From NCBI GenBank assembly GCA_964427535.1, contig CAYRVF010000001.1, positions 2,217 to 66,216 on the forward strand: a DNA stretch of 64,000 nucleotides. Direction: 5' to 3'. Both the position numbers and the translations under genes were made by a program. This document shows, piece by piece, positions 35,169 to 62,767 of this stretch. Positions within the stretch are counted from its first letter, which is position 1; each line of letters opens with the position of its first letter. This stretch comes from an uncultured Ktedonobacterales bacterium (lineage in GTDB: Bacteria > Chloroflexota > Ktedonobacteria > Ktedonobacterales > JADMIN01). The notes beneath the pieces are model-generated. The model was not told the origin of the DNA. It saw only the letters and a program-made list of their open reading frames with translations, and did no database searches.

Positions 35169-35996
35169 GTGCCAGGCCGGGAGCAGTGAATGGAGTCTGG
35201 CAGCGGTGAATATGGGGCGAGTGGCACCCTTGCCGTGAGAGCGCCGGCGCCCTCTCTCGGGGCGGGTGAAAGCTTGTCGTGTTCCGATCAGACCTGGCCT
35301 TGGGGCAGAACGGCTCCAGGAGACCATGCCATCCACGTTCCGCGCATCACTGGATTGTTGATCAGCGGATCGAATCCGGTAATGATCATCCGCATGTCTG
35401 CTCATGGCTCCTCCAGTGACGCCTAGAACCCCAAGCAGACAGCTGGTGGATGCTTTCCCGCCTCGTCAGGTATCACCATTAGCCGTAGCATCTCGCCGCG
35501 AGTGTGCCGCACACTAGTGGTGCGGTGCGCCGACCCACCGCCAAAAAGAGGCTTCAAGGTGTGGTGGCTGTCCTTGGCCATCAGCCGTCCCAGTGTCCGC
35601 ACAGTCCACTTCCAGCAGCACGATCTGCACTCGCCGGCGTGCTTGCTCGGCCATCAAGACGGCGACATCCTCTTCGAGCGTCATGCCTCTACGGTACACC
35701 ATGGCGCGTCCATCTGAGTAGATAGTACGCTGGAGGGTTAGGGCGTGTTATCAATCGTGCGGCGTTAAGTCGACTGTGGGCCGCCGTGTGCAGATGTGAC
35801 GTGCGGCCAGGCTCTCGGGATGGCGGCCCAGCAGCGGCGGGTAAACCGTGCGGAGGATAGCGTGTGGGGGCCGCTCCAACGGTGGCGGTCCGGAGACGGC
35901 GAGCCACTACGTCCTACAGGAGATTGGACAATCCGACATGGCAGTGCTCGGCTATGTAGGCGACGTAGGCGAAAGCCACCGCCGCAGGACTCCCCA

Positions 35997-37505: not shown

Positions 37506-37688
37506 TAATGTCTTTGCGGAGCACGCCGACTTTGCTCTCTCAGGCGCATCGATCCGCTTAGGGCCAGGGCTCGACGATAACGCCGCGCAGGCGGTGATAG
37601 ATGCGTGTCCCTTGCCTGTGTGGGGCAGTTCACCCATTCAACTGCGCCAAGAAACGTGTCTACATTGGGGTACGAAGAGGAAGCAGAA

Positions 37689-38522
37689 ATGGAGGGTTGC
37701 GAGATGCGCGACGGTCACAATCACCTGAGCACACAGGAATACCTGCACTTGATCGGCGTGGCAGAGCTGCCACCGTTGATATGTCCATTCGATCCAGGCT
37801 ATGACCCCGTGACGGTGGAGAGCCATCTCGAGCAGAGTGCCCACCTGATGACCTCGCTGAAAATCTCGATGGCATGCTGGCTAGTTGCTGATGAACGAGC
37901 TACCCGCCGGAAGATCGCAGCGGCACGAGCTCACAATGTGCCGGCGGTGACCGGGGGGACCCCACTCGAGATCGCTGTGGTTCAGGGACAACTGGAGGCA
38001 TATCTTGACCTCTGCGCGGACCTGGGGATCTCACGGATCGAATGTGCGGAAGGCTTCACCACCCTGCCTATGGAACCCCGGGTGATCGTGCAGATGGCCC
38101 GTGAGCGAGGACTCACTGTCCAGTACGAGATGGGCAAGAAGCATGAAGGGCCCTTCACCACGGACTCCCTCAATGAGGCCATCGCACGAGGGAAGGCATG
38201 GCTGGATGGCGGGGCAGTACAGCTTGTCGTCGAGGCCCGCGAGAGCGCACGCGGGATTGGGGCATTCGGGGACGACGGATCCCTCAACACGGATGTTGCG
38301 GACCGCTTCGCCGAGGAATTCGGCCTTGATGTCGCCATGTTCGAGGCTCCCAATAAACCGAGCCAGTTTGCATTCCTCGATCACTTCGGACCGCACGTCC
38401 AGCTCTGCAACGTGCGCCTGGAGGAACTGCTGCGTGTCGAGATCTACCGCCGCGGCCTCCATGCGGACGCGTTCGAGAAACCCAAGCTGCGGCCGGCATA
38501 CATGGTGCGCGAGCCTGCATAG
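37689..38522 (+). CDS. comA: (2R)-phospho-3-sulfolactate synthase family protein (ComA/YitD-like)
   Basis: LKISMACW.., GGTPLEIA, IECAEGF, VVEARESARGIG and MFEAPNKPSQFAFLDHFGPHVQLCNV..LRVEIYRRGLHADAF parallel the conserved blocks of ComA/YitD as I recall them. The start is set at ATG 37689, after GAGGAAGCAGAA. Confidence 0.8.
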   Translation: MEGCEMRDGHNHLSTQEYLHLIGVAELPPLICPFDPGYDPVTVESHLEQSAHLMTSLKISMACWLVADERATRRKIAAARAHNVPAVTGGTPLEIAVVQGQLEAYLDLCADLGISRIECAEGFTTLPMEPRVIVQMARERGLTVQYEMGKKHEGPFTTDSLNEAIARGKAWLDGGAVQLVVEARESARGIGAFGDDGSLNTDVADRFAEEFGLDVAMFEAPNKPSQFAFLDHFGPHVQLCNVRLEELLRVEIYRRGLHADAFEKPKLRPAYMVREPA

Positions 38523-38536
38523 AACGGGAGCTGGTC

Positions 38537-39262
38537 ATGCGGAAGACAGTAGCGATTGATTGCTTTCCTCAGAGCGTGGAAACCTATCGGGATGGCTACG
38601 CGCTTGTCGCGGTCGACGTGATCAGGGCCACGACCACGGCAGTGACCTGTGTCGCCCTTGGTCGAAGGTGCTATCCGGTCCCGTCGATCGAGGCCGCGGC
38701 TCCACTCGCCGCGAGGCTCACTGAACCGCTCCTTGTGGGAGAGGTTGGTGGGAACATGCCTACTGGCTTCGACATGAACAACAGTCCGGCAGACTTGGAG
38801 ACTCGGACCGACATTCACCGCCCGATGATTCATGTGTCTTCCTCAGGCACAAAGCTCATGTGCGGAGCTGCCGAGTCGCAGCCGATGTACATCGCCTGCC
38901 TGCGGAATTACAGTGCGTTAGTCACCCATCTGGCGGCTCACCATTCAATGGTCGCCGTTATCGGTGCAGGCTCCAAGGGCGAGTTCCGCGAGGAGGATCA
39001 ACTTTGCTGCGCCTGGATTGCAGAAGGTCTCCTCGAGGAGGGTTTCGTACCCCAGGACGTCAGGACAGCCGCAATTATTGAGCGATGGAGCGGTATCCCC
39101 GTCGACGCGATCGTCGAAGGTGCAAGCGCTGAATATCTCCGGCGTACCGACCAAACACGGGACCTCGACTTTATCCTAGCGCACGTCAATGACCTCAACG
39201 ATGTGTACCAAGTCGAGGATGGTCAGGTGGTGAGGCAGCTGGCAGAGACATTGGTCGGCTAA
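38537..39262 (+). CDS. comB: 2-phosphosulfolactate phosphatase family protein (ComB/YitC-like)
   Basis: AVDVIRATTTAVT (family signature D-V/I-x-R-A-T/S-T) and HVSSSGTK. 241 aa. Lies 14 nt after the comA-like stop, with a GGGAG RBS. Confidence 0.75.
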   Translation: MRKTVAIDCFPQSVETYRDGYALVAVDVIRATTTAVTCVALGRRCYPVPSIEAAAPLAARLTEPLLVGEVGGNMPTGFDMNNSPADLETRTDIHRPMIHVSSSGTKLMCGAAESQPMYIACLRNYSALVTHLAAHHSMVAVIGAGSKGEFREEDQLCCAWIAEGLLEEGFVPQDVRTAAIIERWSGIPVDAIVEGASAEYLRRTDQTRDLDFILAHVNDLNDVYQVEDGQVVRQLAETLVG

Positions 39263-45743: not shown

Positions 45744-45843
45744 GCCGGTAGCGCGAATGTCGCTGTCGCGGTGAGGCAGTGACCACGTGCGACCCAAGCG
45801 GCTGCATTGGCAGTGTGCGTTAGCCCCCAGAACGGCAGGAGAG

Positions 45844-48816
45844 ATGTCGCAAATCTCGAACGCGGCGTCTGCGCAGGCAGAGGCGGCCCGCCACCGAACC
45901 GCGAATCAACGTATTTTCCGCGCCTTCCTGAGCATCTCATCGGCGGCACTCTTGATCCGCGTGATGGGTATGCTCAATCAGGTGATCGTCACCTCGCATT
46001 TCGGCCTCGGCGCGGCAATGGACGCCTACTTCGTGGCCTCTGGGCTGCCCCTCCTCATCGCGTCGCTCATCACTGGCTCGCTGGATGTCTCGGTCGTCCC
46101 GGGCTATACACGCGTACGAGACCACGCTACACGAGAGCAGATGACCATTTTCTTCAGCACGCTGCTGAATCTGTTTCTCATTGGGGCGGCACTGCTCACT
46201 GTGGTCATGTTCGTTTTCCGTCGCCAGCTCATCTTCATCGTGGCCCCTGGCCTGGACCCGGGGACCATGCAACTGGCAGTCAACCTCACTCCATTCATCA
46301 TTCCCGCGTTTCTCTTTCTGGTCGCGATCGGCTACCTGGAGTCCATTCTCGCCGCGGAAGGGCAGTTCGGGTGGCCCGCCTATGCCGGCGTACTCGTCCC
46401 CTTCACAACGGCTGTACTGGTGCTAGTGATAGGCAGATCAGAGGGCGTCATTATCCTGTGTATTGGGATGCTCGTTGGCCTATGCTTCCAGATCAGTGTG
46501 GTTGTGGTGCGGGTGCGGAGCACAACGATTGCCTACCGCCCCATCATAGACCTGCACAATGCGGAGATCGCCGCGGTGTTAGCCCTTGCCTGGCCTGCCC
46601 TTGTTAGCGGCCTGATCTTACAGGCTAGTCCTCTCGTCGACCAGATGTTTGCATCGACCCTCTCGGCAGGCAGCATTTCCGCGCTTAACTACTCACTCAA
46701 GCTCATCAGCGTGCCGGTCGGTGTCATCTTTGCCGCAGCGGGGCGAGCGGTGCTCCCGTTTCTGTCGCGTCAAATCGCTGCCGGGGATGTACGCGCCTTC
46801 AAAGAAACTCTGCGTTTGAATTTATGGGTTGTTGGTGGTGTGACAGCCGTGTTGTCCGCTCTCATGTTTGTGTTCGCGCATCTGATCGTGCAAATCCTCT
46901 TCCAACGCGGGGCCTTCACGCCGGCCGATACCACGCACACAGCCAGCACGCTGAGGGGCTTCACGGTGGGCCTGATACCGATGGCGCTGGGGTTCATGTT
47001 GGCGCGGACCTTTAGCGCAGTTCGCAAGACATATGTCCTCACGTTGACGAGTCTCTTCGCAATTCTGGCCAACGCCCTCTTCGACTTTATCTTCGCTCGC
47101 CTGTGGCAGAGCGTTGGCATTGCCCTGTCAACCTCGGCGGTTTACTACTGCACGATGATTATCCTGCTCATCCTGCTCCGGCGTGAGGTCGGCAATCTGG
47201 ACCTGCTGAGGCCTCCGCCGGAACTTCTGGTGGGCCTCCGCCAGATGGGCGGCGCTCGCTTTCGGCAGTGCCAGACATGGATCGCGAGGTTCACGATGAA
47301 CATTCCGCGTCGGTTCGGTGTGGAACTCCACGACCTCCCGTGGGTGGCCTCGCGGGAGGAGCGCCTCCCGGGGATTGGCATCCCGCCTCAGCTGCGACAA
47401 CCGCTGTTGTACAGCGTTGCACTGCTTGCCATCTTAGCGGCGGGAGTCGGCAGCGTCTTCATGGACCCCGTTTTGGTCCTACGGATTGTCCTGGGGGTCC
47501 CCTTCATCCTGATCCTCTTGCGCTTTCCCTACGTGCTGTTGCTGGTGTGGGCGTCCATCGAAGTCTTTTTTGGCTCGGCGGTTCCCTTCCTCAGCGGCAA
47601 TAATGTGCAGACTGCCCTCACGGTGCCGACCTTACTCCTGTTGGTGACGGTGCCGTTCTGGGAGACCGTGAGGCGCATCCCCGCGCTGGCCTTCATGCTG
47701 CTCTTCCTGTTGTGGTCGCTCATAAGCATTGGAGTCTCGAGTATCGATCCCGTGACCTTCCTGAAAGAGTGGACGCTTACCCTGGATGTCGTGGCCCTGG
47801 CAGTGCTGTCGGTGAACATCTTGACGACGCGACGCCGCTTGCTGGGAGTAACCGACACTATCCTGGCGTTGTCGGCGGGCCTCGCGCTGTTTGGGATCTA
47901 TGGCTACGTCACGCACCGCTACGGGCAACTTGACACGCAAGCGGGGGTCTTTCGTGCCAGCTCGATCTTCGGCGTCGCCACCGGCTTTTCTTTCTTCCTG
48001 TCGCTCGTGATCCCACTGGCGCTCTATCGCCTGTTTACCGTTCGAGGCCTGCTATGGCGGGCCGGTCTTTCGGCCCTCATTCTCGTCTTTCTGCTGGCAC
48101 TCGGGCTGACGTTCACACGCGCGGCCCTTGCCACTGTTCCTCTGTGCCTCATCATCCTCGGCCTCTTCTTGCCCTCGCGCCGGATGAAGGTGAGCGTACT
48201 TTGCGGCACTCTTGGGGTGGGCATCCTCCTGGTGCTCTTGGAGGTGTTGGGCTATGTGCACGTCTTCGATCGCTTCTTTAACCAGGATCTTGCGACACTC
48301 AATGGGCGCACCTATCTGTGGGCGGCCGTGCTGGATCACTTCGACCCCACCCAGATCTTCGGCCACGGGCTGGGCGCATCTGACGCTCTGTTGACCGCGT
48401 TGCATATCGGCGCCAATGGCCTGACCTCTATCAGCCTCATTGGGACGTCTCCACACAGTCTCTTTTTGGGGACACTCTACGACCACGGTATCATCGGCCT
48501 GTTGCTGCTCACATTGGCTCTAACGGCCCTCCTGGTGAGCCTGGTCAAAGGCGCAAAAAAGGCTTCAGGAGAGCATCGTCTCCTCTACTCCATCGCGCTG
48601 GCGGTCTGTATCAGCACGATCATCCAGTCGATCGACTCGAACCAGATCATGGAGCCATTGCTAGGCACCTACTTCTGGATCATCGTGACGCTCCCGTTCG
48701 CCCGCTACTGGTCATATCCCAAGCCACCATCCGAGACCGAACAGCCGTTAGTGGGCACAAATGTGGGACCGAGCCCAGAGTCACGGCAACAAAGGGTGTC
48801 GCAGCCACTACGCTAG
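45844..48816 (+). CDS. Fusion protein: MurJ/MviN-like MOP flippase (N-terminal ~480 aa) + O-antigen polymerase/ligase (Wzy_C) domain (C-terminal ~470 aa)
   Basis: N-terminal part: ALLIRVMGMLNQVIVTSHFGLGAAMDAYFVASGLP plus ~14 TM helices. Linker around 47180-47400. C-terminal part: FRASSIFGVATGFSFFLS, TFTRAALATVPL, NGRTYLWAAVLDHF..IFGHGLG, SPHSLFLGTLYDHGIIGLLLL. One uninterrupted frame. GTG 45787 is an alternative start. Confidence 0.8.
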   Translation: MSQISNAASAQAEAARHRTANQRIFRAFLSISSAALLIRVMGMLNQVIVTSHFGLGAAMDAYFVASGLPLLIASLITGSLDVSVVPGYTRVRDHATREQMTIFFSTLLNLFLIGAALLTVVMFVFRRQLIFIVAPGLDPGTMQLAVNLTPFIIPAFLFLVAIGYLESILAAEGQFGWPAYAGVLVPFTTAVLVLVIGRSEGVIILCIGMLVGLCFQISVVVVRVRSTTIAYRPIIDLHNAEIAAVLALAWPALVSGLILQASPLVDQMFASTLSAGSISALNYSLKLISVPVGVIFAAAGRAVLPFLSRQIAAGDVRAFKETLRLNLWVVGGVTAVLSALMFVFAHLIVQILFQRGAFTPADTTHTASTLRGFTVGLIPMALGFMLARTFSAVRKTYVLTLTSLFAILANALFDFIFARLWQSVGIALSTSAVYYCTMIILLILLRREVGNLDLLRPPPELLVGLRQMGGARFRQCQTWIARFTMNIPRRFGVELHDLPWVASREERLPGIGIPPQLRQPLLYSVALLAILAAGVGSVFMDPVLVLRIVLGVPFILILLRFPYVLLLVWASIEVFFGSAVPFLSGNNVQTALTVPTLLLLVTVPFWETVRRIPALAFMLLFLLWSLISIGVSSIDPVTFLKEWTLTLDVVALAVLSVNILTTRRRLLGVTDTILALSAGLALFGIYGYVTHRYGQLDTQAGVFRASSIFGVATGFSFFLSLVIPLALYRLFTVRGLLWRAGLSALILVFLLALGLTFTRAALATVPLCLIILGLFLPSRRMKVSVLCGTLGVGILLVLLEVLGYVHVFDRFFNQDLATLNGRTYLWAAVLDHFDPTQIFGHGLGASDALLTALHIGANGLTSISLIGTSPHSLFLGTLYDHGIIGLLLLTLALTALLVSLVKGAKKASGEHRLLYSIALAVCISTIIQSIDSNQIMEPLLGTYFWIIVTLPFARYWSYPKPPSETEQPLVGTNVGPSPESRQQRVSQPLR

Positions 48817-48834
48817 CGACGCCAGAACGGAGGG

Positions 48835-50148
48835 GTGATGAGCAAGCCGCGCATCTACATCGCCGTTGCCGATTTTCATCCATCGCTTGGAGGAACTGAA
48901 CAGCAAGCTCGCATGCACAGCCATCTGCTGCGCGAGCGGGGCTGTGAGACGACCGTCGTGACCTTTCGCCACCACCCATCCTGGCCGCGGCGAGATGTGG
49001 TCGACGGTGTGCCGGTCATGCGCGTAGCCGGGTGGCCCTTGATACATCGCCAGGAGCGGCGGGCGCCACTGCGAAAATTGTCGTACCTGATGGCCATGGC
49101 GATCATGGGCTGGACGCTCTGGCGACAGCGCCGGCACTACGATATCGTGCATGTCTATAAGCTCAATGTGCTGGCGCTTTCGGCAGCGTTGGTGTGTCGA
49201 GTCACGGGCACCCCACTGCTCGTTTCCGTCCGAGCCACAGGCGTGGGTGATGCAACGCGGCTTCCGAACGACGCCTCATGGGGTGCTGGACTACCCGATA
49301 GGGCTGCACCGGTTTCGCCGGTCGCTGAACACCTTCGCATGGATGGAGACCTGGAAGATCTGGAGCGCATAGGACGGGTGGGCGTACGACTCACCCGATA
49401 TCTGCTCCGTCGGAACGGCGCTGTCGTGGTTGCGCTGAGCTCGCAGACACAGACGTATTTGGCCGCGCACCACTTTGAGCTGCCTCATGTGCACCTCGTC
49501 CCGAATGGTGTAGACATCATCCGATTTGCGCCGCCCCGCGCAGAGCCCTCCTCGAATGAGCAGGCACAGACCGTCATCTGTGTCTCGAAGCTGCGGTACC
49601 AGAAGGGCATCGACGTTCTTCTACGAGCATGGCGCCTGGTGCGTGATCAGGTCCCGCAGGCACGACTGATCGTCGTCGGCGACGGCCCGTTGGAGGAATC
49701 GCTGCAGCATCTCGCGAAGACGCTCGACATCGCCGACAGCGTCGAATTCACGGGGCGGCAGACCGACGTGCCGACGCAGCTCCACCGTGGCGGGCTGGCA
49801 GTCCTCGCCTCACGCTACGAAGGCATGCCGAACGCCATTCTGGAGGCGATGGCCTGCGGCCTGCCCTGTGTGGCCACACGCGTCAGCGGCAGCGAGGACA
49901 TCATTCAGCACGGCATGAACGGCCTGCTGGTCGAGCCGGAAGATGTAGATGGCCTCGCGCAGGCGTTGCTCACCCTGTTACGCGATCCCGCGCTGGCTCG
50001 GACATATGGTCGTGCTGCCCGTGCCGCCGTCGAGAACCACTATGCGCTCGAACACATCATGGATGTGTACATGCGGCTCTACGAGGACATGGCCGACGGT
50101 AGGAAGCTGAGAGCGGAGAGCGCATCCCAACCGGCGCTGGGCACCTGA
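48835..50148 (+). CDS. GT4-family glycosyltransferase
   Basis: EGMPNAILEAMACGLPCVATRVSGSEDIIQHGMNGLLVEPED. The C-terminal block is nearly identical to that of the GT4 at 28660. Confidence 0.85.
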   Translation: MMSKPRIYIAVADFHPSLGGTEQQARMHSHLLRERGCETTVVTFRHHPSWPRRDVVDGVPVMRVAGWPLIHRQERRAPLRKLSYLMAMAIMGWTLWRQRRHYDIVHVYKLNVLALSAALVCRVTGTPLLVSVRATGVGDATRLPNDASWGAGLPDRAAPVSPVAEHLRMDGDLEDLERIGRVGVRLTRYLLRRNGAVVVALSSQTQTYLAAHHFELPHVHLVPNGVDIIRFAPPRAEPSSNEQAQTVICVSKLRYQKGIDVLLRAWRLVRDQVPQARLIVVGDGPLEESLQHLAKTLDIADSVEFTGRQTDVPTQLHRGGLAVLASRYEGMPNAILEAMACGLPCVATRVSGSEDIIQHGMNGLLVEPEDVDGLAQALLTLLRDPALARTYGRAARAAVENHYALEHIMDVYMRLYEDMADGRKLRAESASQPALGT

Positions 50149-50175: not shown

Positions 50176-51174
50176 CTACGCGGGTGAGGTTATACGCTTG
50201 CCATGTCCCTCAATCCCATTGTAGCCATACCGGACCGTGGCATCGGTCATCCCGGCCTCAGTGAACCACCTCCGCAGGGTCTTAATCGTGACCGGTGAGT
50301 CATAACGCGGCGATAGCATATCGAACGCGTCCAGATATGCCCACTCCTTCAGCATGCTCCCTTGAAGTCCCAATCTGCTGTAGTCAGGTACGAGCAGGCG
50401 CCAGTTCATGGTGGGACCGATACGGGGGATACGGCTAATTGCGCGGGTAAGCGGCCAGACAAAGTCAATCCAGCGGCGCGTGAGGCGATATAGGCGCGGA
50501 GGATCTATGCGCGTGGTCAACGGGCGAACGTAATACTTCGTCGCCAGGTAGGTACGGAAGAACGTCCTCTTGTAGATGTCCACCACGAGCTCCCCATTGG
50601 GTTTAAGCATGGGGGGCAGCGCTAGAAACGCCGCGTGCACGTCTGGCGTGTGCTGCAGCATACCAAAACAGAAGACTTTGTCGAACGACCCAGGGCGAAA
50701 CGGCATGGCATAGACATCGGCCTGGACGATCAAGACATTCTCGCGCCACCCGTTCGAGGCATAGTTGGCCTCGACGGCATGACTGTAGTCCAGCGATACG
50801 ACAAACGCCCCCGTCGAAGCCGCCTGTTCGGTAAACCGCCCCGAGCCACTTCCCACCTCCAGAATCACCTGACCCGTAAGATCTCTCGGCCAGCGGGTTT
50901 CCTCGAAGAAGCGCCGCTCGGATCGCTTTACTCCGCTGTAGCTATCGTACTGTGTTCTCGCGTGCAAGGTCCACTCGAATCCAAAACTCGAAGCGTAGTT
51001 CTCGATAGGAACGAAACGCGGAATGTACCAGACGACCGGATACATTGTCTGGCAGTCCGTACAGAGTAATTCCGCTGTCTCCAGAATGTCTCCCTGCCGC
51101 TTCTCGGCCGAGCTGATAACGAGTTGGCCCAGGCATCGCGGACACGCAAGATACTTTACAGCGGACTCTCTCAC
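50176..51174 (-). CDS. SAM-dependent methyltransferase with N-terminal Trm112-like zinc-ribbon
   Basis: LACPRCLGQL....LLCTDCQTMYPVVWYIPRF (CxxC..CxxC) followed by motif I ILEVGSGSGRF. The start is set at GTG 51174, after GAGGAG with a 6-nt spacer. The track start is 51357. Confidence 0.8.
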   Translation of the reverse strand: MRESAVKYLACPRCLGQLVISSAEKRQGDILETAELLCTDCQTMYPVVWYIPRFVPIENYASSFGFEWTLHARTQYDSYSGVKRSERRFFEETRWPRDLTGQVILEVGSGSGRFTEQAASTGAFVVSLDYSHAVEANYASNGWRENVLIVQADVYAMPFRPGSFDKVFCFGMLQHTPDVHAAFLALPPMLKPNGELVVDIYKRTFFRTYLATKYYVRPLTTRIDPPRLYRLTRRWIDFVWPLTRAISRIPRIGPTMNWRLLVPDYSRLGLQGSMLKEWAYLDAFDMLSPRYDSPVTIKTLRRWFTEAGMTDATVRYGYNGIEGHGKRITSPA

Positions 51175-51810
51175 GGGTAGCTCCTCTCTACTCGAGTGGT
51201 AGGCTGCACTGCGCGACCCTGTTCCCGGACCGTCCGATGCGGTGACTGCGTCCGTGAGACTGCCAGTGAAAGCTGCCATTCCACGCATGCCCTCGCATCG
51301 CGCTGCGAATGAAGCGCAGCAAAATGTGTGTTTGTTGGCCAGTGTAGGTGTCCGCACGAAGAAGGTCTCTGGGGAAAACCCCCTAGTTTAGTGCAGGGAA
51401 CTTGTATCACGGCCCCACTAGACATGCGCGCGGTCTTGGATGCATGACAACCCGCACCTGCCTAGCGTGCTTCAGCCAGGCGAGTAACATAGTGGACGTG
51501 GGTCGAGTGCAGATGTCAGTCAGCAGCGATGAACTACGTGGGAAACATGCGAGGCAAAGGCTCACTGGGGGGAGGGCGGCGACAACTGAACGGTCCTGGG
51601 GCCTCGGGCGCTCGTCTCTCCATCCGTTCATGGGCGGATGTCCCGCACGCACCTTCACACGCGCCCTATGTACCTCGGGTTGGAGGCGGCGGTACGCTCC
51701 TAGAGGGAGCCCGCAAACCAGCGCAGATGACGCGGTACACAGTCTCTGCGCCCAGCTGAGAATGCACCCTCGGCGTGCAGTGGAGCCGTACAGGCGCTAT
51801 ACCCAGGATA

Positions 51811-51846
51811 AGGCACACCAGGCACATTAGACACATCAGGCACACT
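51811..51846. repeat. 9-bp tandem repeat x4 (AGGCACACC AGGCACATT AGACACATC AGGCACACT)
   Basis: Read directly, ~250 nt upstream of the FemAB/CelD-like gene in a 730-nt divergent intergenic region. Confidence 0.6.
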
Positions 51847-52091
51847 GTGTCGCACCACTCGCGCTGAAGCCCGACGGGACCTCGACAGCCGAGCGACACG
51901 ATGCCTTCAACACCAATCTCCACCCACCAGTGATGCTCATTCGAGCTATCAGGTGCGAATCCAACGCGCGGCCCACCGCGTGCCCAAGTTGTGCGACGGA
52001 CAACTGACGAGCGAGCCAGCATCGGTACCAGAAGCGTTCCGCACAGGTCGGTGGCAGTCGAAGCGCAATCTCTGGGAGACTGGAGTCGAAG

Positions 52092-53288
52092 ATGGCTTTG
52101 ATCACGCGTACAGCAACGTGGACTCCCGCCAGCACGCTCCGACCACGCGTCTACACATCCTGGGACGAGCTGGCAGAGCTCCGCGCGGCGTGGGAGCACC
52201 TGCTGCAAGAGAGCACAGGTCCCACGATCTTCTCAACTCAAGAGTGGCTGGGCGCCTGGTGGAAGGCATTTAGCGCGGGCAAGCAACTCCTCACCATCAC
52301 CTTTTCGAACTCGCGCGGCGAACTGGTCGGAGTGGCACCGTTCTATCTCGACGAGGTGAACGGTCGCTATTACGGCAGGCTCAGGCGACTGCGACTCGTC
52401 GGTGACGGAACAGTGGACTCTGATAACCTCGATCTGATAGTCCGCACCGGTCAGGAAGAAGTCTGCGCGAAAGCGGTGCTCGACTGGCTCGCATCCGAGT
52501 CGGTGTGGGATCTCTGTGAGTTGAACACGCTGCCTGCCAATTCACCGAACACCCGCCCGATGTTGAGGCTCCTCGACACGATGAAATGGGTTCAGGGCGT
52601 GTATGAGCACCCGAATTCCGCGGTCGTCTTGCCTGAGAACTGGGACGCATATCTCGGGCAGCTTTCCAAAGAGCAGGCCTACGGAATCGAGCGCTACACA
52701 CGCCGGCTGCGCCGGCACTACGCTGTTGCGATCTACAAGTGTGTGAGAGAAGAGGAGCTACCAGGGTATTTGGACGTCTTGTTCGATTTGCACCAGAAGC
52801 GGTGGACTGGCCGAGGGCTCCCAGGAACCTTTTCCTCACAGGAGCGCAGGCAGTTTTACACGGACATGAGCCGGGCGTTCCTTCGCCGCGGGTGGTTAGA
52901 GTTCTGGTTGTTGGAACTCGACGGGATGATCGTAGCGGCACAATTTGCCTTCCGCTACGGCGATACGGTGTATCAGCTGCAGGAAGGTCTCGATCCAGCC
53001 CATTACACCGATCGGGCGGGCCAGGTATTGCGAGCCCACATCATCAAGCAGCTCATCGCTGACGGTGTACATCGCTATGATTTCTTACGCGGAGATCAAG
53101 AACATAAGCGGAACTGGGGGGCTCTACCGGGTTCGTACACCTATATTCATTTTGCCAAACCCTTTACCCGCGCGGGTCTGTACATCCCGTGGCGAGACCG
53201 TATCGAGACGGGCAGGAGATGGTTGGAGGCGAATGCTCCGGCTCCCGCTTACTCACTGGTACGAGACATCTATCGCCGCATCCAGTGA
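52092..53288 (+). CDS. FemAB/CelD-like GNAT-fold acyltransferase (BioF2-like acetyltransferase domain)
   Basis: 398 aa. N-terminal WDELAELRAAWEHLLQES..TIFSTQEWLGAWWKAF and C-terminal YDFLRGDQEHKRNWGA are typical of the CelD/BcsL and PEP-CTERM-associated FemAB-related families. Confidence 0.7.
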   Translation: MALITRTATWTPASTLRPRVYTSWDELAELRAAWEHLLQESTGPTIFSTQEWLGAWWKAFSAGKQLLTITFSNSRGELVGVAPFYLDEVNGRYYGRLRRLRLVGDGTVDSDNLDLIVRTGQEEVCAKAVLDWLASESVWDLCELNTLPANSPNTRPMLRLLDTMKWVQGVYEHPNSAVVLPENWDAYLGQLSKEQAYGIERYTRRLRRHYAVAIYKCVREEELPGYLDVLFDLHQKRWTGRGLPGTFSSQERRQFYTDMSRAFLRRGWLEFWLLELDGMIVAAQFAFRYGDTVYQLQEGLDPAHYTDRAGQVLRAHIIKQLIADGVHRYDFLRGDQEHKRNWGALPGSYTYIHFAKPFTRAGLYIPWRDRIETGRRWLEANAPAPAYSLVRDIYRRIQ

Positions 53289-53324
53289 CGCCTGATACCC
53301 GTCCGCACCGTCGCGATACGAGCC

Positions 53325-53349
53325 CGAAGGTCGCTGGCGTCGACCTTCG
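53325..53349 (+). terminator. Hairpin after the acyltransferase gene (CGAAGGTCG ctggcgt CGACCTTCG)
   Basis: Perfect 9-bp stem starting 37 nt after the stop codon. Confidence 0.45.
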
Positions 53350-53745
53350 CTGGACACTGGGCAGTCCCACGACAGCATGACCGGTAGAGCAGTGGAAGCT
53401 GTCGACTCCAATAGCTGTTAGCTATGCGGTGGAGCTCATCAGGTGGAGCAGTCGCTTCAGGCCACCACTGCGCGCTCGTGGAAAGCGCCGTGGCATATGC
53501 CGCTATGACGACGTGACGCGCGCTCCCGCGACTCCCTCCGACACCTCCAAGACATCCGCACAGCCGCGATTCCAGCCGCAGAGTGGCAACTCCACCACTC
53601 ACCAGTACGTGGGTAGATGTCCCGCGTGCGCCTACACGCCCTCCCCATTTACGCCAGGCTGAGCTATGCCGCTACACTACGACAACGCATCACACACCCT
53701 GGCACACCTTGGCGCACGTGCTCGTCGGAAGGGGCAGACAGCCAC

Positions 53746-55665
53746 ATGTGCGGAATAGCCGGATTCATCGACGCGCAGCGCAGCAATGAAGACGCCACGC
53801 ACCTGATAGACACGATGTGCCGAGTCATTCGCCACCGCGGCCCAGACGACCAGGGGATCTGGGTCGGCGATGGCGTCGCGCTCGGCATGCGTCGGCTCGC
53901 CATTATTGATCTGGCAAGCGGCCAGCAGCCGATATTCAACGAAGACCAGAGCATCCTGGTCGTGTTCAACGGCGAGATCTATAACTACCTCGACTTGCGC
54001 GAGGAACTCCGGGCGCACGGCCATCACTTTCGGACAGACTCTGACACGGAGGCTATCGTCCACGCGTATGAGGAGTATGGCGATCAGTGCGTGACGCACC
54101 TTCGTGGCATGTTCACCTTCGCTCTCTGGGACAACACGCGCCAGCGCCTGTTGCTGGCGCGTGATCGATTTGGCAAGAAGCCATTGAACTACTATTGGGA
54201 CGGACAGCGACTTATTTTCGGGTCTGAGATCAAGTCCCTTCTCATGGCGGGCATCCCACGCGAGATCAATCCCATCGCGCTCGACGAATATGTCGCCTAC
54301 GGCTACGTGCCCAGCCCCAACACGGTGTTTCGCGACGTCTACAAACTGCCGGCAGCCCACAGCTTGATCTATCAGAACGGGCACATCAGCATCGAGCGCT
54401 ACTGGCAGCTCCCTTTTACCCCGACATGCCAGGATGACGAGCGCACCGCCATCGAGCGCACGCGAGCACTTCTCGAAGATGCTGTGAGAGTCCGCTTGAT
54501 GAGTGAGGTGCCGTTGGGAGCCTTTCTGAGCGGCGGCGTCGATTCGAGCGTCGTCGTCGGGCTCATGAGCCAGATGATGTCGCAGCCGGTCAAGACGTTC
54601 TCCATCGGCTTCGAGGAGCAACACTACAGCGAGTTATCCTATGCCCGGCAGGTGGCGAGACATTTCGGCACTGACCACCGCGAGCTGGTCGTCCAGCCGG
54701 AGTTGGTCTCCGTCCTCCCCGAACTGGCCTGGGCCTATGACGAACCGTTCGGCGACGACTCGATGTTGCCCACCTACTATGTGTCCAAGCTGGCATGCGA
54801 ATCGGTCACGGTGGCGCTCAGTGGCGACGGCGGCGACGAGATCTTCGGGGGGTACTCAAGCTATCAGCGCGAGTGGCTCATCCAGCGCACGCCAGCCTGG
54901 ACACGCTTCCTGGTCGGACATGGGGCGGCATTCATGCCCGATGGCATGCGTGGCAAGAAGCGCCTCAGCGCTTTACATCGCGATCTCGATATGCGCTGCG
55001 TGCAAGCCAACACGCTCCTTCCCGCGGGATCTCGCCGTGCAATCTACCAACCCGAGTTCCTGGCGCAGCTAGGCGATCACGACCCGTATCACCGGCAGCT
55101 GGCCCTCTTCCAGGGCGCGCGCGATCTGGACACCGTGGCACGCATGCAGTATGTGGACGCGCAACACCACCTGACCGACGACATTCTGGTCAAGGTCGAC
55201 AAGGCCAGCATGTTCAACTCGCTAGAGACACGCGCCCCGCTGCTCGACCAACATCTGGTGGAGTATGTCTCGTCACTGCCCACCTCGGTGCGCATGGGCA
55301 ACGGCACGCTCAAGTCCCTCCTCAAGAAGTCCGCCGCCGACCTGCTCCCCGACGAGGTCCTCACGCGCCCGAAACACGGGTTTGATGTGCCACTCGAGCA
55401 CTGGTTCCGCGGCGAGCTGACCGCCTATGCCTATGACATGCTCTGCTCGCCCCTGGCACAACAGCGGGGGATCTTTCGGCCCGAGTTTGTCCGCGAGCTG
55501 CTGCAGGCCCATGCCAGTCGCCGGTGGCTGAACTACGGACGGGCCATCTGGGGTCTCCTCTGCCTCGAGCTCTGGATGCAGGTGTACATGGATCCGCCGC
55601 TCGCGCGCATTGCACGGGGCGCTCAGGCGCCCGCATCACCTGCGCTGGCGATTAACGAAGGATAG
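53746..55665 (+). CDS. Asparagine-synthase-family glutamine amidotransferase (AsnB/WbpS-like), copy 2
   Basis: MCGIAGF and FLSGGVDSSVVV. Collinear with copy 1 along the full length, with identity well above half by eye. The start is set at ATG 53746. Confidence 0.9.
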   Translation: MCGIAGFIDAQRSNEDATHLIDTMCRVIRHRGPDDQGIWVGDGVALGMRRLAIIDLASGQQPIFNEDQSILVVFNGEIYNYLDLREELRAHGHHFRTDSDTEAIVHAYEEYGDQCVTHLRGMFTFALWDNTRQRLLLARDRFGKKPLNYYWDGQRLIFGSEIKSLLMAGIPREINPIALDEYVAYGYVPSPNTVFRDVYKLPAAHSLIYQNGHISIERYWQLPFTPTCQDDERTAIERTRALLEDAVRVRLMSEVPLGAFLSGGVDSSVVVGLMSQMMSQPVKTFSIGFEEQHYSELSYARQVARHFGTDHRELVVQPELVSVLPELAWAYDEPFGDDSMLPTYYVSKLACESVTVALSGDGGDEIFGGYSSYQREWLIQRTPAWTRFLVGHGAAFMPDGMRGKKRLSALHRDLDMRCVQANTLLPAGSRRAIYQPEFLAQLGDHDPYHRQLALFQGARDLDTVARMQYVDAQHHLTDDILVKVDKASMFNSLETRAPLLDQHLVEYVSSLPTSVRMGNGTLKSLLKKSAADLLPDEVLTRPKHGFDVPLEHWFRGELTAYAYDMLCSPLAQQRGIFRPEFVRELLQAHASRRWLNYGRAIWGLLCLELWMQVYMDPPLARIARGAQAPASPALAINEG

Positions 55666-55740
55666 TCGACTCACCATACCGACGAAGAGTACGTCGTGGC
55701 ACGAGTCGCGCGCCTTCTCAACCTAAAGGAGACAGGCACT

Positions 55741-56808
55741 ATGGCTGCGGCATCTGCCAACCCGGTCCGCAGAGAGACTCCGCAGGTAGCGAAGAAGCCG
55801 CTACGGGTGTTGATGGTCACGGGAGCCTACCCGACACCGCAGGTCCCGCATTCGGGCACGTTCATCAAGAGCCAGGTCGATTCGCTTATCGAGGCAGGTG
55901 TTGACGTCGAGGTGATCCACCCCACGCCTGGCCCTGTGCCACTACGCTACATGAGCGCAGCCACACAGGTGTTCTTCAAGACGCTCACCCGTCGTTTCGA
56001 TGTCGTTCACGGCCACTACAGCACCTGGTGCCTGGCCGCCCGTCTGCAATGGACGACGCCTCTGGTGGTCGCGTTTCTCGGCAGCGATGTCTTCAACCCC
56101 CCGCTCGCCGATCACCGCTACAGCAAGAAGGGCACGCTCACCGGAGTTGTGAGTCGCTGGTTGTCTCAGCGGGTTGACGCCGTGATTGTCAAGTCGGAGG
56201 CGATGCGCGAGGCAATCCCGGCCAAGTCCGTCTATGTGATCCCCAACGGCGTCGACCTTGACCTATTTCATCCCGTCCAGCGCTCCAAGGCACGCGCGGC
56301 GCTCGGCTGGAACCCACACGGCTGTTATGTGCTGTTTGGCAATAACCCGAAGATCCCCGTAAAAGACTTTCCTCTGGCGCAGCTCGCGATCGAGCGTCTA
56401 CGGGCCAGAGGCGTGTCTGTGGAGCTGGTCGTCGCCACCGGGCTGCCCCACGCGACGGTCGCGCAGTATATCAACGCCAGCAATGCCCTGCTCCTGACCT
56501 CGAAATCCGAAGGCTCACCTAATATCGTGAAGGAAGTGATGGCCTGCAACGTCCCGGTGGTCGCGACTGACGTCGGCGATGTCGCCCAGGTCATCGGGCA
56601 CACGGCAGGCTGCTACGTCTGCCCCTCCGACCCTGACGCATTGGCGACCGGCCTCCAGAAGGCGCTCGAATACCCAACGCCAACCACTGGTCGCGCTGAT
56701 ATCGCCCATCTGGCGAACTCGCTCGTCGCGGAGCAGGTCATAGCGGTGTACGAACACGTGATCGACGAGTGGCGGAAAGTGGGGAGAGCACATGCGCGCA
56801 CAGCCTAG
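55741..56808 (+). CDS. GT4-family glycosyltransferase
   Basis: AAGGAGA lies 8 nt upstream of ATG 55741. SEGSPNIVKEVMACNVPVVATDVGDVAQVI. Confidence 0.8.
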   Translation: MAAASANPVRRETPQVAKKPLRVLMVTGAYPTPQVPHSGTFIKSQVDSLIEAGVDVEVIHPTPGPVPLRYMSAATQVFFKTLTRRFDVVHGHYSTWCLAARLQWTTPLVVAFLGSDVFNPPLADHRYSKKGTLTGVVSRWLSQRVDAVIVKSEAMREAIPAKSVYVIPNGVDLDLFHPVQRSKARAALGWNPHGCYVLFGNNPKIPVKDFPLAQLAIERLRARGVSVELVVATGLPHATVAQYINASNALLLTSKSEGSPNIVKEVMACNVPVVATDVGDVAQVIGHTAGCYVCPSDPDALATGLQKALEYPTPTTGRADIAHLANSLVAEQVIAVYEHVIDEWRKVGRAHARTA

Positions 56809-58153
56809 ACGGGGAAGAACCAAGACCCACGCCCCCAAAGTTCTGATGCTGGTTGAGAATCGCCCGGCGCCCGACGATGCGCGTGTCTGGCCCGAAGCCC
56901 TGGCGTTACGTGATCGCGGGTTTCAGGTTAGTGTTATCTCGCCCAAAGGCGCAGAAGCGTATCGTGAGACACATAGCTGCATAGACGGCATTCACATCTA
57001 CCGCTACGACTTGCCGACCGGCGACAGCGCCACGGCGTACATCGCCGAGTACGCCATCGCGCTGGTCAAGACATTCGGGCTCAGCCTGTGGGTGTGGCTT
57101 CGCCGCGGCTTCGACGTCGTTCATACTGCCAATCCGCCAGATATCTTCTTCACCGTCGGCTGGTTTTACCGCCTGTTCGGCAAGCGGTTCGTGTTCGATC
57201 AGCACGATCTGTCTCCTGAGCTGTTCGAGGTGCTCTTCATCGAGGGTCGCGTTCCTCGCAAGAGTGCCGAACTCCTCCACAAGCTGCTACTGTGCTGTGA
57301 ATGGTGTAGCTATCGAGCGGCAAATCTGGTCATCGTGACAAACCAGTCGATCGGGCGCATCGCGGCCCGACGTGGAGGATGCTCGGCACAGAAGGTGGCC
57401 GTGGTACGAAACGGGCCTGACCTTCGGCACATGCAGCCGGTCGCCCCCGATCCCCAGCTGAAGATGGGACGCCGCCATCTGCTTGCCTATCTTGGAGTGA
57501 TGGGTGCGCAGGATGGCGTCGCCTACGCGGTCCATGCGCTTGAGAGCCTCGTTCATCGGCGTGGCCGTCGCGATGTCGCCATGGTATTGATGGGCGATGG
57601 GGCCCAGGCTCCCGCGCTGCGTGCGCTTGTTCACGAGCTGGCACTGGAGGAGTACGTTCGTTTCACGGGCTGGCTGCCGCATGACGACATCGTCCGGTAC
57701 CTCAGTGTGTCGGATATTGGCCTGTCGCCCGACCCGCATAACGTGTTGAACGACGCCAGTACCATGATTAAGACGATGGAGTACATGGCGTTGGGCAAGC
57801 CCCTCGTCGCCTTCGATCTCACCGAGACACGCGTTACCGCCCAGGAAGCCGGGCTCTACGCAACGCCGAACCTTGCGGAAGACTTCGCGAACAAAATCGA
57901 GGCGTTACTGGACGACGAAGCACTCCGCCTGAGGATGGGGGCGCTGGGACGCAAGCGCATCGAGGACGTGCTGAGCTGGGACCATTCGACGGAGCACCTT
58001 CTGTGCGCCTATGAGCGGCTATTGGGCAGAGATATGAGTACCGGTCATGTCGCGTCCGAGGCGACGAGAACCAGGATGAGCCCTCAGAACAGAGCGGTAG
58101 GGCACGTCGGCCAGAGGCAGCCCCATGAGGTACACACTGGCCACCCGGCATAG
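56792..58153 (+). CDS. GT4-family glycosyltransferase (WbuB-like)
   Basis: VLMLVENRPAPDDARVWPEALALRDRGFQVSVISPK, TMIKTMEYMALGKPLVAFDL. Overlaps the upstream GT stop by 17 nt. Confidence 0.85.
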   Translation: MRAQPRRGRTKTHAPKVLMLVENRPAPDDARVWPEALALRDRGFQVSVISPKGAEAYRETHSCIDGIHIYRYDLPTGDSATAYIAEYAIALVKTFGLSLWVWLRRGFDVVHTANPPDIFFTVGWFYRLFGKRFVFDQHDLSPELFEVLFIEGRVPRKSAELLHKLLLCCEWCSYRAANLVIVTNQSIGRIAARRGGCSAQKVAVVRNGPDLRHMQPVAPDPQLKMGRRHLLAYLGVMGAQDGVAYAVHALESLVHRRGRRDVAMVLMGDGAQAPALRALVHELALEEYVRFTGWLPHDDIVRYLSVSDIGLSPDPHNVLNDASTMIKTMEYMALGKPLVAFDLTETRVTAQEAGLYATPNLAEDFANKIEALLDDEALRLRMGALGRKRIEDVLSWDHSTEHLLCAYERLLGRDMSTGHVASEATRTRMSPQNRAVGHVGQRQPHEVHTGHPA

Positions 58154-61816: not shown

Positions 61817-62767
61817 TTAACCTGCGCCGCTACAGCGCAGCACCGCGGGGATTGTGCGCAGCAGGAGCGAGATATCGCGCCACAGCGACCCGTGGACCGC
61901 GTAATCGAGATCCATCTCGACCATCCCGTCGAAGCTCACCCGGCCGCGCCCATCGACTTGCCACTGCCCGGTAATCCCCGGCGGCACGCGCAGCCTCGCC
62001 AGAGCGCGCTCGCTGTAGCGCTCGACCTCATCGGCCATCGGCGGCCGAGGCCCTACGAGACTCATCTCACCCTGCACGACGTTGATCAGCTGCGGCAATT
62101 CGTCGATGCTCAGCTTGCGGAGGATGCGGCCGACCCGAGTGATGCGCGGGTCGGCCTGGTGTTTGAATGGCGAGCCCACAACAAACGGTTTCTCGCGTTG
62201 CCTGCGTCGCCAGCGCGGGTGCGAGGACAGCGCAGGCTCGCCCATCAACGGATGACTGCTCGTCTCTGCCCGGCTCGACGCGACATCTGCGCCACTCGGT
62301 ACGAGAGAAGCCGCAGACGAGACGACAACAACGTCCAGGGGGACACCATTCATCCACTTGGCCACAATCTCCAGGTGGGCGGCGTGTGCCTGCTCGGGCG
62401 GCGCCTGGCGCATCGTCCGGAATTTGTAGACGACAAACGGGCGACCATCCTTGCCGATACGGACCTGCCGATAGAGTGCCGGCCCTGGGGAGTCCAGGCG
62501 GATCAGCACCGTGATGAGCGGGTACAGGGGGAACGTCAGCAGCAAGGCCGGTATGGCGAGCGCGAGGTCCAACGAGCGCTTCAGCACGTAGCTGCGTCTC
62601 GCGGGCAGGATGCCTGTTGCCGCATGCGTTCTGTAAGTCTCGAGCAACCGGAGCTGAGGTCCCTGAGCATCTATGGTCCGGAGAAGCTCGACCGTGGCAC
62701 GCTGGCCGCGAGCCGCTCGCCCGTCGTGCCGTCCTAGCTGCATGTGTGGCTGAGTGAGTGCTCTCAT
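61817..62767 (-). CDS. Small (monotopic, PglC/EpsL-type) polyprenyl-phosphate sugar phosphotransferase with an enlarged internal loop
   Basis: [63 protein letters not shown]. There are 86 residues between FRTM and DPRIT. Confidence 0.85.

Follow-up and report, generated by a model that had tools for sequence, protein, structure and literature searches.

The Polysaccharide Locus and Its Fusion Gene

The window, by which we mean the whole 64-kb stretch of DNA analyzed here, comes from a Ktedonobacteria-type bacterium and contains a cell-surface polysaccharide locus. Positions 22759–45743 encode a UDP-Glc dehydrogenase, an NTP transferase, a GFO oxidoreductase, an epimerase, a GT4 glycosyltransferase and an AsnB-type amidotransferase, together with a DMFA2_C protein, methyltransferases, ComA/ComB, a racemase, an ATP-grasp protein, an NHL protein and a polysaccharide deacetylase. 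Next comes the fusion gene, whose coding region most likely occupies 45844–48816 on the forward strand, and 18 bp downstream of it lies a GT4 glycosyltransferase (48835–50148, forward strand; Pfam and NCBIfam). A methyltransferase, a FemAB-like Acetyltransf_6 protein, a second AsnB-type amidotransferase and two GT4s follow at 50176–58153. The locus also includes a polysaccharide co-polymerase (PCP; 58434–60119, forward strand) that combines a Wzz domain with a BY tyrosine autokinase, identified by Pfam Wzz, a P-loop and TIGR01007 (142.9 bits, over the cutoff of 108), and a priming polyprenyl-phosphate glycosylphosphotransferase (PGT, Bac_transf; 61817–62767, reverse strand; Pfam and NCBIfam).

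In this setting of a PGT, four GT4s and a PCP/BY-kinase, the fusion carries the sole Wzx-like and the sole Wzy-like domain of the locus. The first-pass annotation had seen no separate Wzx or Wzy gene, and ORF and Pfam scans bear this out across the 64-kb window: Pfam returned neither a Polysacc_synt match nor a second Wzy_C match, and the remaining ORFs with multiple TM segments, which encode a histidine kinase, a PrsW protease and a VTT/DedA protein, do not resemble Wzx or Wzy.

The uninterrupted frame of about 1000 codons reported for this gene is real. In the ORF list, 45787–48816 (forward strand) is one open frame without a stop, 1009 aa from a GTG at 45787, and residue numbers throughout refer to this 1009-aa version. 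Because AGGAGAG lies just 5' of an ATG at 45844, and because the database gene call (P0001, 100% identity to the fusion) is 990 aa long, the ATG is the likelier start, giving a product of 990 aa plus stop; the first 19 codons of the longest ORF are probably untranslated.

The Flippase Half

The N-terminal half (aa 39–468; 45901–47190, forward strand) was delimited from Pfam, PDB alignment, Foldseek and residue conservation. Its proposed MurJ-like character is confirmed by a match to Pfam MurJ PF03023 over aa 70–469 (E 3e-67, 227.5 bits against a cutoff of 27.4), and a HMMER alignment pairs aa 43–467 with residues 3–432 of PDB MurJ 7waw. Foldseek recovers the 12-TM MOP core fold from MurJ 7wax (E 2.4e-16, TMt 0.81, rmsd 1.7 Å, 432 columns) and gives a TMt of 0.82 for WzxE 9g9n. 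At E ≤ 0.1, the only Pfam matches in the fusion are MurJ, MatE and Wzy_C, with none to the Polysacc_synt-type profiles PF01943, PF13440 and PF14667.

The half nevertheless departs from canonical MurJ in three respects. Its score against the TIGR01695 equivalog is 219.6 bits, under the cutoff of 235.55, with profile positions 3–431 of 506 matched. Alignments to MurJ end at TM12, and the Pfam MurJ matches of all relatives end at about 401–407 of 451, so that TM13-14 are absent; these two extra C-terminal helices form a lipid-tail groove and are described as exclusive to MurJ and conserved in its diderm and monoderm forms (PMC6465408; bioRxiv 10.64898/2026.06.21.733627). The helices at aa 534–579 were considered as displaced TM13-14 and rejected, because in a related two-gene locus (L045) they start the unfused Wzy_C protein, and the unfused flippase (497 aa) already ends in the linker.

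The third respect is the cationic triad, R18-R24-R270 in diderm MurJ and K22-R176-K302 in monoderm MurJ, which takes the Arg24-type charge from TM5. In the HMMER alignment to PDB MurJ, on which the residue mapping depends, R58, D79 and K305 are the conserved equivalents of MurJ R18, D39 and R270; R58 is present in all 82 homologues aligned (82/82), and position 305 is Lys in 78 and Arg in 4. The position of E. coli R24 is N64 here and Asn, Ser or Tyr among the homologues. We tempered the loss of Arg24 alone as an argument against lipid II flipping, since monoderm MurJ draws this charge from TM5, and the corresponding position (E. coli M171, S. aureus R176) was then checked too; it is T208 here and Thr in 79 of the 82. 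The triad is thus basic at two of its three positions only. Because TM13-14 are missing, the triad is incomplete and the NCBIfam score is below cutoff, the half is, by its sequence, a 12-TM MurJ-like protein and not canonical MurJ.

These departures bear on whether the N-terminal half could be the cell's housekeeping lipid II flippase, with the Wzy_C domain as an accessory acting on or near peptidoglycan precursors. Such a role would fit the strength of the PF03023 match, the fact that the top PDB matches in sequence and fold are MurJ, and a class-wide conservation of the kind expected for a core envelope gene; it would also fit a tblastn search of about 800 kb of related loci (about 20 kb per genome), which returned fused genes only and no second MurJ. 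It is difficult to reconcile with the equivalog score, the lack of TM13-14 or the neutral residues N64 and T208 in the triad. Moreover, the gene always sits inside a PGT/GT4/PCP polysaccharide cassette, one MAG holds two paralogous clusters (L035 and L037), and related unfused 12-TM proteins likewise occur in sugar-nucleotide/GT clusters. We therefore consider a housekeeping role highly improbable.

The Wzy_C Half

The C-terminal half (aa 534–971; 47386–48699, forward strand) has 14 predicted TM helices and a WaaL-like fold. Its AF2 model (pLDDT 81.9, pTM 0.80) found a sole significant PDB match in the fold search, WaaL 7tpg_B (E 4.1e-7, probability 1.00, TMt 0.60, 437 columns); by sequence, searching the PDB with phmmer and with profiles reached MurJ chains only. 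Pfam Wzy_C PF04932 matches aa 764–908 (48076–48510, forward strand) at 52.6 bits (cutoff 31.7), and the earlier assignment of this half as Wzy_C-like now stands on both profile and fold. The Wzy_C family takes in polymerases as well as ligases and O-oligosaccharyltransferases, and the question is to which of these the fusion is closer.

Like a Wzy, the half belongs to the Wzy_C type, spans the membrane many times and has large external loops. Alignment and model place an external beta-hairpin at aa 713–724 (47923–47958, forward strand) with an invariant R723, and topology and the homologue alignment place a large external loop at aa 823–891 (48253–48459, forward strand). The latter contains an R829-x10-G840 tract (nt 48271–48306), intact in 80 of 82 homologues, and the invariant residues N839, R841, W845, G859 and G861. 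In Pseudomonas aeruginosa Wzy, two external loops have RX10G tracts with essential Arg residues (PMC3854497); the half studied here has exactly one such tract, and its second external element has the invariant R723 without an exact RX10G. A highly conserved His or 'HN' motif in the large loop is needed for WaaL ligation (PMC9938171, citing Ashraf 2022). The candidate here, equated with the ligase-type His by motif position rather than by structural superposition, is H890; at this position 56 of the 82 homologues have His, 24 have Ser and 2 have Gln. Because the RX10G tract holds an invariant Arg as in Wzy and the WaaL-type His is not invariant, we infer that the half probably acts as a polymerase.

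A flippase-ligase would be the competing interpretation, with the Wzy_C half as a WaaL/PglL-type transferase passing a flipped, possibly unpolymerized, glycan to a protein, lipid or wall-polymer acceptor. Pfam names Wzy_C the 'O-antigen ligase' family, WaaL is the only structural match, and a bifunctional fusion of glycosyltransferase and ligase is known in Brucella WadA (PMC9938171). Profile scans of the window found no LCP-type ligase, so the attachment enzyme would otherwise be missing. However, this interpretation would leave the PCP/BY-kinase, a chain-length and polymerization regulator that sits beside the fusion in most loci, without a polymerase partner in the locus, and it accords poorly with the Ser and Gln found in place of H890, with 14 TM helices rather than the 12 of WaaL, and with the Wzy-like tract. 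Ktedonobacteria are monoderm, and a lipid A-core is not known from monoderm Chloroflexota, so that this acceptor is not expected. We regard a ligase function as unlikely, though worth keeping in view.

Linker, Topology and Ancestral Gene Boundary

Conservation, length, pLDDT and the split form in L045 define a K/R-rich linker between the halves (aa 469–533; 47191–47385, forward strand). The charged linker that had been noted is indeed there, with 12 K/R and 7 D/E over aa 464–539, and pLDDT falls below 50 over aa 503–536. Among the 82 homologues, column identity is 0.18 in the linker against 0.6–0.8 in both halves, and linker length ranges from 14 to 110 aa. That the halves are about equally conserved and the linker is not indicates that both halves are under selection. 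Since the two proteins of L045 align to aa 16–485 and aa 517–983, the alignments place the ancestral gene boundary within the linker.

The predicted topology is 12 TM helices, a cytoplasmic linker and 14 TM helices, a count and orientation that would let both halves function. The 12-TM MOP core is predicted to end on the cytoplasmic side, where the K/R-rich linker also lies, and helix parity then puts the beta-hairpin with R723 and the 823–891 loop outside and the C-terminus inside. An inside C-terminus is independently required by those homologues in which it bears a cytoplasmic GT4 domain. The pTM of 0.65 for the full chain, against 0.80 for the C half alone, gives no sign of a fixed inter-domain interface.

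Distribution, Split Forms and Rearrangements

An architecture search recovered MurJ plus Wzy_C in all of the homologues listed, at least 120 at 46–61% identity, and in 39 loci from Ktedonobacteria genomes, one of these genomes being the complete sequence of Ktedonosporobacter rubrisoli; more distant fused representatives make up a second tier with the same genomic context. The 39 loci have a common gene order, PCP-fusion-GT4-GT4-AsnB-(AsnB)-GT4-GT4, with the PCP/BY-kinase directly upstream of the fusion in most of them. O-antigen and capsule loci are typically hypervariable, but in the Ktedonobacteria loci examined this one is conserved throughout.

This distribution effectively refutes the idea that two neighboring genes were joined here by an assembly error, either a missed stop or a frameshift, a concern raised with the original observation and one to which we give almost no chance. 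A true two-gene form does exist in L045, and the halves of a related contig (L044) occupy different frames with a 31-nt overlap. However, the continuous frame recurs in over 120 independent database clusters as well as in the 39 genome loci, from different studies, and conservation extends over both halves and the flanks of the junction. L044 was also considered as an ancestral split form and rejected; its break sits at a 'YQRWLT' segment duplicated in the two frames, pointing to a derived frameshift or a slip in the assembly.

Several loci show the same domains in other arrangements. L045 consists of a PCP, a MurJ-like protein of 497 aa, a 12 bp gap and a Wzy_C protein of 495 aa, which are 52% and 40% identical to the corresponding parts of the fusion, and split MurJ-like and Wzy_C pairs also occur in similar proteobacterial AsnB/deacetylase/ComA loci (L042 and L043). 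In L046, a reverse-order Wzy_C-MurJ-like fusion lies inside a PGT/Wzb/PCP/GT4 cassette, again with the PCP adjacent, as it is in L045. In P0013, the orthologue of the downstream GT4 is joined to the C-terminus of the flippase-Wzy protein, and further GT4 fusions are found in P0121, P0133 and P0146. The domain orders in the family and its relatives are thus GT4-flippase, flippase-GT4, flippase-Wzy, Wzy-flippase and flippase-Wzy-GT4. The reverse-order fusion of L046, which is unrelated, and several fusions to the neighboring GT4 arose independently.

Proposed Function and Implications

Wzx/Wzy-dependent synthesis is arguably the commonest way in which O-antigens, capsules and wall polymers are made, and we know of no demonstration of contact between flippase and polymerase in this pathway. 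We propose, with a probability of roughly 0.65, that the fusion unites in a single chain the flippase and the polymerase of a Wzx/Wzy-type pathway, and that this pathway makes a conserved cell-surface glycopolymer in Ktedonobacteria. Hypothetically, the PGT and GT4 enzymes of the locus would assemble repeat units on a polyprenyl-diphosphate carrier, where the units would be amidated, methylated and otherwise decorated. The N-terminal 12-TM MOP domain would flip the lipid-linked unit to the outer leaflet, and the tethered 14-TM domain, with its conserved-Arg loops outside, would polymerize it, with the adjacent PCP/tyrosine kinase controlling this step. The flexible linker would keep flippase and polymerase at 1:1 and close together within the membrane, so that a flipped unit could pass to the polymerase without diffusing away. 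This coupling had been suggested from the single frame, and it gains comparative support from the split genes of L045, the independent reverse-order and GT4 fusions, and PCP synteny.

A broader and more tentative hypothesis is that this family, together with its relatives, amounts to a modular assembly line for glycans on a single chain, in which the last cytoplasmic GT, the flippase and the polymerase are tethered in various orders and lipid-linked units are obligatorily channeled in cis from glycosylation to flipping to polymerization. If so, nature would have supplied genetic proof of the Wzx-Wzy super-complex that has long been proposed, and these proteins would be a single-polypeptide target for a first flippase-polymerase structure, for a wall polymer of Ktedonobacteria that is conserved class-wide and possibly essential. 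Conservation of the locus within the Ktedonobacteria loci examined hints at an envelope polymer resembling a common antigen in this little-studied, Gram-positive-staining, actinomycete-like lineage.

Conservation of the fusion across these loci supports the long-held, unproven idea that flipping and polymerization are physically coupled, and recurrent independent fusions, in both orders and with a neighboring GT, are classic Rosetta-stone evidence for physical joint action. The architecture was not known to have been characterized when first noticed, and our full-text literature search turned up no paper on a natural fusion of flippase with polymerase or of MurJ with Wzy_C. As a 1:1 complex in one chain, it is suited to cryo-EM, co-evolution analysis and channeling assays. 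NCBI and JGI pipelines label the fusion family 'MurJ'. Automatic annotation under this name can cover 12-TM flippases that lack TM13/14 and serve other glycans, a point that counts both in annotating genomes and in weighing MurJ as a drug target.

Comparison with Known Systems

The XrtA/PEP-CTERM EPS loci supply the best NCBIfam matches of the neighboring genes (TIGR03108, TIGR03088, TIGR04063 and TIGR03018), and the proteobacterial loci with adjacent unfused MurJ-like and Wzy_C genes add to this likeness. However, all neighbor matches are below curated cutoffs (TIGR03108 at 642 and 648 bits against 816.9, stp2/stp3 far under), and the 64-kb window has no exosortase-like multi-TM ORF. With MurJ/MviN, known from E. 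coli, T. africanus and S. aureus structures, the fusion shares TM1-12 and PF03023; it differs in lacking the TM13-14 groove, in having Asn and Thr at the diderm Arg24 and monoderm TM5-Arg positions, and in being joined to a Wzy_C protein within a polysaccharide cassette.

WaaL 7TPG shares the Pfam family and the fold of the C-terminal half. It differs in its 12 TM helices and in its lipid A-core acceptor, which a monoderm host is not expected to offer, whereas the fusion family has a variable ligase-type His and a PCP partner that points to polymerization. Brucella WadA, in which a cytoplasmic glycosyltransferase is combined with an O-antigen ligase membrane domain (PMC9938171), parallels the GT4 fusions of P0013, P0121, P0133 and P0146, but it has no flippase domain, carries its GT at the N-terminus and is a ligase in a diderm.

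The Clostridioides difficile MviN (CD2781) lies in the locus for the cell-wall glycopolymer PSII and is implicated in its export (PMC5065235), a precedent for MurJ-family flippases in loci for glycopolymers other than peptidoglycan. Like the fusion, it is a MurJ-family protein in a taxon-wide conserved locus for a non-peptidoglycan, Wzy-type wall polymer of a monoderm; it differs in standing alone, with a separate putative polymerase, CD2777. The same pathway logic is found in the Wzx/Wzy/Wzz pathway, for which a Wzx-Wzy-Wzz complex has been proposed from complementation genetics (PMC10030265, citing Marolda 2006). The shared features are locus content (PGT, GTs and PCP/BY-kinase), a 12-TM MOP flippase, and external loops with conserved Arg in the Wzy-type half. 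The flippase of the fusion belongs by sequence to the MurJ family rather than the Polysacc_synt (PST) family of Wzx, and flippase and polymerase, separate proteins in that pathway, are here a single chain.

The fusion gene and its conservation

ORF calling shows that the fusion gene occupies one frame at window 45787-48816 (+), 1009 codons long and without an internal stop. The longest ORF starts at GTG 45787 (+, 1009 aa, the numbering used here), but ATG 45844 (+) is probably the start codon, because AGGAGAG lies upstream of it and the resulting 990 aa agree with the database gene call; window 45787-45843 is the stretch between the two. Residues 70-469 match MurJ (PF03023) at 227.5 bits, residues 764-908 match Wzy_C (PF04932) at 52.6 bits (gathering score 31.7), and a 76-residue stretch with 12 K/R and 7 D/E separates the two halves. 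The arrangement read in the first-pass annotation, one frame of ~1000 codons holding a MurJ half, a charged linker and a Wzy_C half, is thus present in full. Among 82 homologues no part of the protein is less conserved than the linker (column identity 0.18 versus 0.6-0.8 in both halves), whose length ranges from 14 to 110 residues, and its pLDDT is below 50 in the full-length AlphaFold model. This suggests a flexible tether between the flippase and Wzy halves; a linker of only 14 residues forces the two domains to be membrane neighbours.

A missed stop or frameshift between the halves had been raised as a concern. However, 334 matches came from a search of 5.8 billion protein clusters, and MurJ plus Wzy_C is found in 120 of the 120 matches listed, at 46-61% identity and 91-99% coverage except for one triple fusion aligned locally over 45%; named homologues among the matches listed come from Ktedonobacteraceae MAGs. 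In a scan of one genome per species, the full-length fusion occurs in 39 loci, all of them from Ktedonobacteria/Chloroflexota, among them Ktedonosporobacter rubrisoli, whose genome is complete. Two paralogous copies (loci L035 and L037) occur in a single MAG (MFD09603.bin.1.156), each with its own cluster of polysaccharide co-polymerase (PCP) and GT4 glycosyltransferase genes. Fused proteins that are more divergent form a second tier (530-675 bits), recovered when a profile was searched exhaustively against 1.84 billion representatives; one of them has the same gene context. The fusion is not an assembly artefact. In one related, frame-broken contig (L044 3900-4010) the halves lie in different frames with a 31-nt overlap and 'YQRWLT' is encoded twice, 17 codons apart, which indicates a short out-of-frame duplication or assembly slip inside the linker.

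Fold, topology and the flippase half

On the full-length AlphaFold model, whose pLDDT is 83.4, TM1-12 of MurJ (7wax) can be superposed with an rmsd of 1.7 Å over 432 columns, and so can 12-TM WzxE. Modelled separately, residues 464-1009 form 14 TM helices (pLDDT 81.9, pTM 0.80). Whether the topology would let both halves function had been left to be checked. Helix parity, counted from the cytoplasmic K/R-rich linker, places two elements outside. One is the beta-hairpin 713-724, which carries the invariant R723; the other is the large loop 823-891, where R829, N839, R841, W845, G859 and G861 are invariant. Helix parity also places the C-terminus inside, as is independently required by homologues with a cytoplasmic GT4 domain at that end. 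The predicted topology is thus compatible with the function of both halves.

The flippase half falls below the TIGR01695 equivalog cutoff, and its alignments with solved MurJ chains end at TM12. According to published descriptions, only MurJ has TM13-14, and diderm and monoderm MurJ both retain them (PMC6465408; bioRxiv 10.64898/2026.06.21.733627). Helices 534-579 were considered as displaced TM13-14 and rejected, as they belong to the Wzy protein in L045, a relative in which flippase and Wzy_C genes are split, adjacent and in the fusion's order. The L045 flippase (497 aa) aligns gap-free to fusion residues 16-485 at 52% identity and its Wzy_C protein (495 aa) to residues 517-983 at 40%; these boundaries assign the extra helices to the Wzy protein, so the flippase natively has 12 TM helices. 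The cationic triad keeps its R18 (R58) and R270 (K305) equivalents, and neither of the two positions known for the third charge is basic (N64 at Ec R24; T208 at Ec M171/Sa R176), which speaks for a substrate that is not lipid II. C. difficile MviN provides a precedent for a MurJ-family flippase in a non-peptidoglycan wall-polymer locus (PMC5065235).

The polysaccharide locus

The gene sits in a ~40-kb Wzy-type polysaccharide locus that encodes sugar-nucleotide enzymes, four GT4 glycosyltransferases, a Bac_transf priming enzyme, two AsnB-type amidotransferases, several methyltransferases, a polysaccharide deacetylase, a FemAB-like acyltransferase, ComA/ComB and a PCP with its tyrosine autokinase (TIGR01007, above cutoff). 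The top NCBIfam matches of the neighbours are XrtA/PEP-CTERM EPS families, with every score below cutoff. The order PCP - fusion - GT4 - GT4 - AsnB - (AsnB) - GT4 - GT4 is kept across the 39 loci. Such conservation is unusual among surface-polysaccharide loci and suggests that the locus may make a common, core envelope polymer.

ComA/ComB usually serve coenzyme M or sulfolactate metabolism. Here the phosphosulfolactate synthase and phosphatase (window 37605-39262) lie inside the locus alongside a racemase and an ATP-grasp ligase, a setting that hints at a sulfolactate-type decoration of an unusual kind. From its gene content, the polymer made by the locus is expected to carry amidated uronic acids (two AsnB) and methyl groups, and it may carry a substituent derived from sulfolactate (ComA/ComB). 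At L043 10378-11142, a ComA with 60% identity to that of the window lies close to a split pair of MurJ-like and Wzy_C genes, in a MAG of a proteobacterium. A DMFA2_C (N,N-dimethylformamidase beta-subunit-like) protein recurs in these polysaccharide loci (window 32113-33789, many of L001-L039, and L046 3106-4665, a reverse-fusion locus), and a 517-aa ORF at window 33852-35405 (-) is without a Pfam match.

As the first-pass annotation had proposed, the locus has no separate Wzx or Wzy gene: a hydropathy scan of every ORF of at least 100 aa across the 64 kb found no further membrane protein resembling Wzx or Wzy. Besides the fusion, multi-TM ORFs encode only a histidine kinase, a PrsW protease and a VTT/DedA protein. 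Two of these, outside the locus, are unusual: an FHA domain fused to the PrsW intramembrane protease (6178-8007, -) and a histidine kinase (18771-21149, -) that has ~11 TM helices as well as PDZ and GAF domains, with a polyprenyl synthetase (21146-22135) next to it at the locus edge.

Polymerase or ligase

The Wzy_C family spans both polymerases and ligases, and we consider a polymerase roughly three times as likely as a ligase for this half. WaaL O-antigen ligase (7tpg_B, E 4.1e-7), the only significant PDB match of the residue 464-1009 model, is its only solved structural relative; this agrees with a ligase, as do the single RX10G tract found in the Wzy_C half and the lack of any LCP-type attachment enzyme in Pfam scans of the window. 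However, the host is a monoderm in which no lipid A-core is expected, PCP/BY-kinase (the autokinase) adjoins the fusion in nearly every locus, and the fusion is the sole Wzy_C protein present, all of which favour a polymerase. Two sequence features also favour a polymerase: the R-x10-G tract of the large loop, a motif holding essential Arg residues in P. aeruginosa Wzy (PMC3854497), is intact in 80 of 82 sequences, and the His of the terminal 'HN' motif, important in ligases (PMC9938171, citing Ashraf 2022), is replaced by Ser in 24 and by Gln in 2 of the 82. The gene is best described as encoding a single-chain protein, a 12-TM MurJ-like flippase joined to a putative 14-TM Wzy-type polymerase, conserved across Ktedonobacteria.

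Proposed coupling and comparison with known systems

Besides L045, split adjacent pairs occur more distantly in proteobacterial L042 and L043, loci that have AsnB, deacetylase and ComA genes in common with that of the window. In P0217 (918 aa) the order is reversed, with Wzy_C ahead of the MurJ-like half; this fusion lies at L046 8001-10757 (GCA_038209275.1, JBBQXW010000057.1) in a cassette ordered priming enzyme - DMFA2_C - Wzb-like phosphatase (LMW-PTP) - PCP - fusion - GT4 x4. Only 26% identity links its flippase half to that of the window's fusion, and the two Wzy halves show essentially no sequence relationship. P0217 joins the same partner families and is an independent fusion. In the window, the downstream GT4 begins 18 bp after the fusion stop (48816-48835). 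C-terminal fusion to a GT4 occurs in at least two lineages, each with a different paralogue, and gives MurJ-like + Wzy_C + GT4 proteins of 1400-1516 aa (P0013, P0069, P0089, P0117, P0121, P0133). Further architectures around the 12-TM MurJ-like flippase (P0146, P0165, P0181, P0191, P0194) are Wzy_C+GT4, GT4+MurJ-like, MurJ-like+GT4, MurJ-like+SAM methyltransferase and MurJ-like+LTXXQ.

That the same pathway partners have fused repeatedly is Rosetta-stone evidence that they cooperate physically. The split pairs, the reverse-order fusion and the GT4 fusions lend support to the coupling of translocation to polymerisation suggested in the first-pass annotation. The full-chain pTM of 0.65, versus 0.80 for the C half alone, does not support a rigid interface. 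The recurrent fusions fit a Wzx-Wzy-Wzz super-complex, proposed from genetics (PMC10030265, citing Marolda 2006).

Full-text literature searches found no description of a natural flippase-polymerase fusion, and the present fusion offers a direct way to test whether flippase and polymerase are coupled. Brucella WadA, in which a cytoplasmic GT is joined to a membrane domain of Wzy_C type (PMC9938171), is a characterised precedent for the GT + Wzy_C-type fusions seen around this flippase family. Compared with canonical MurJ, the flippase half is MurJ-like but without TM13-14 and the third triad charge. The fusion is an uncharacterised variant of the known Wzx/Wzy system and not a new kind of system.
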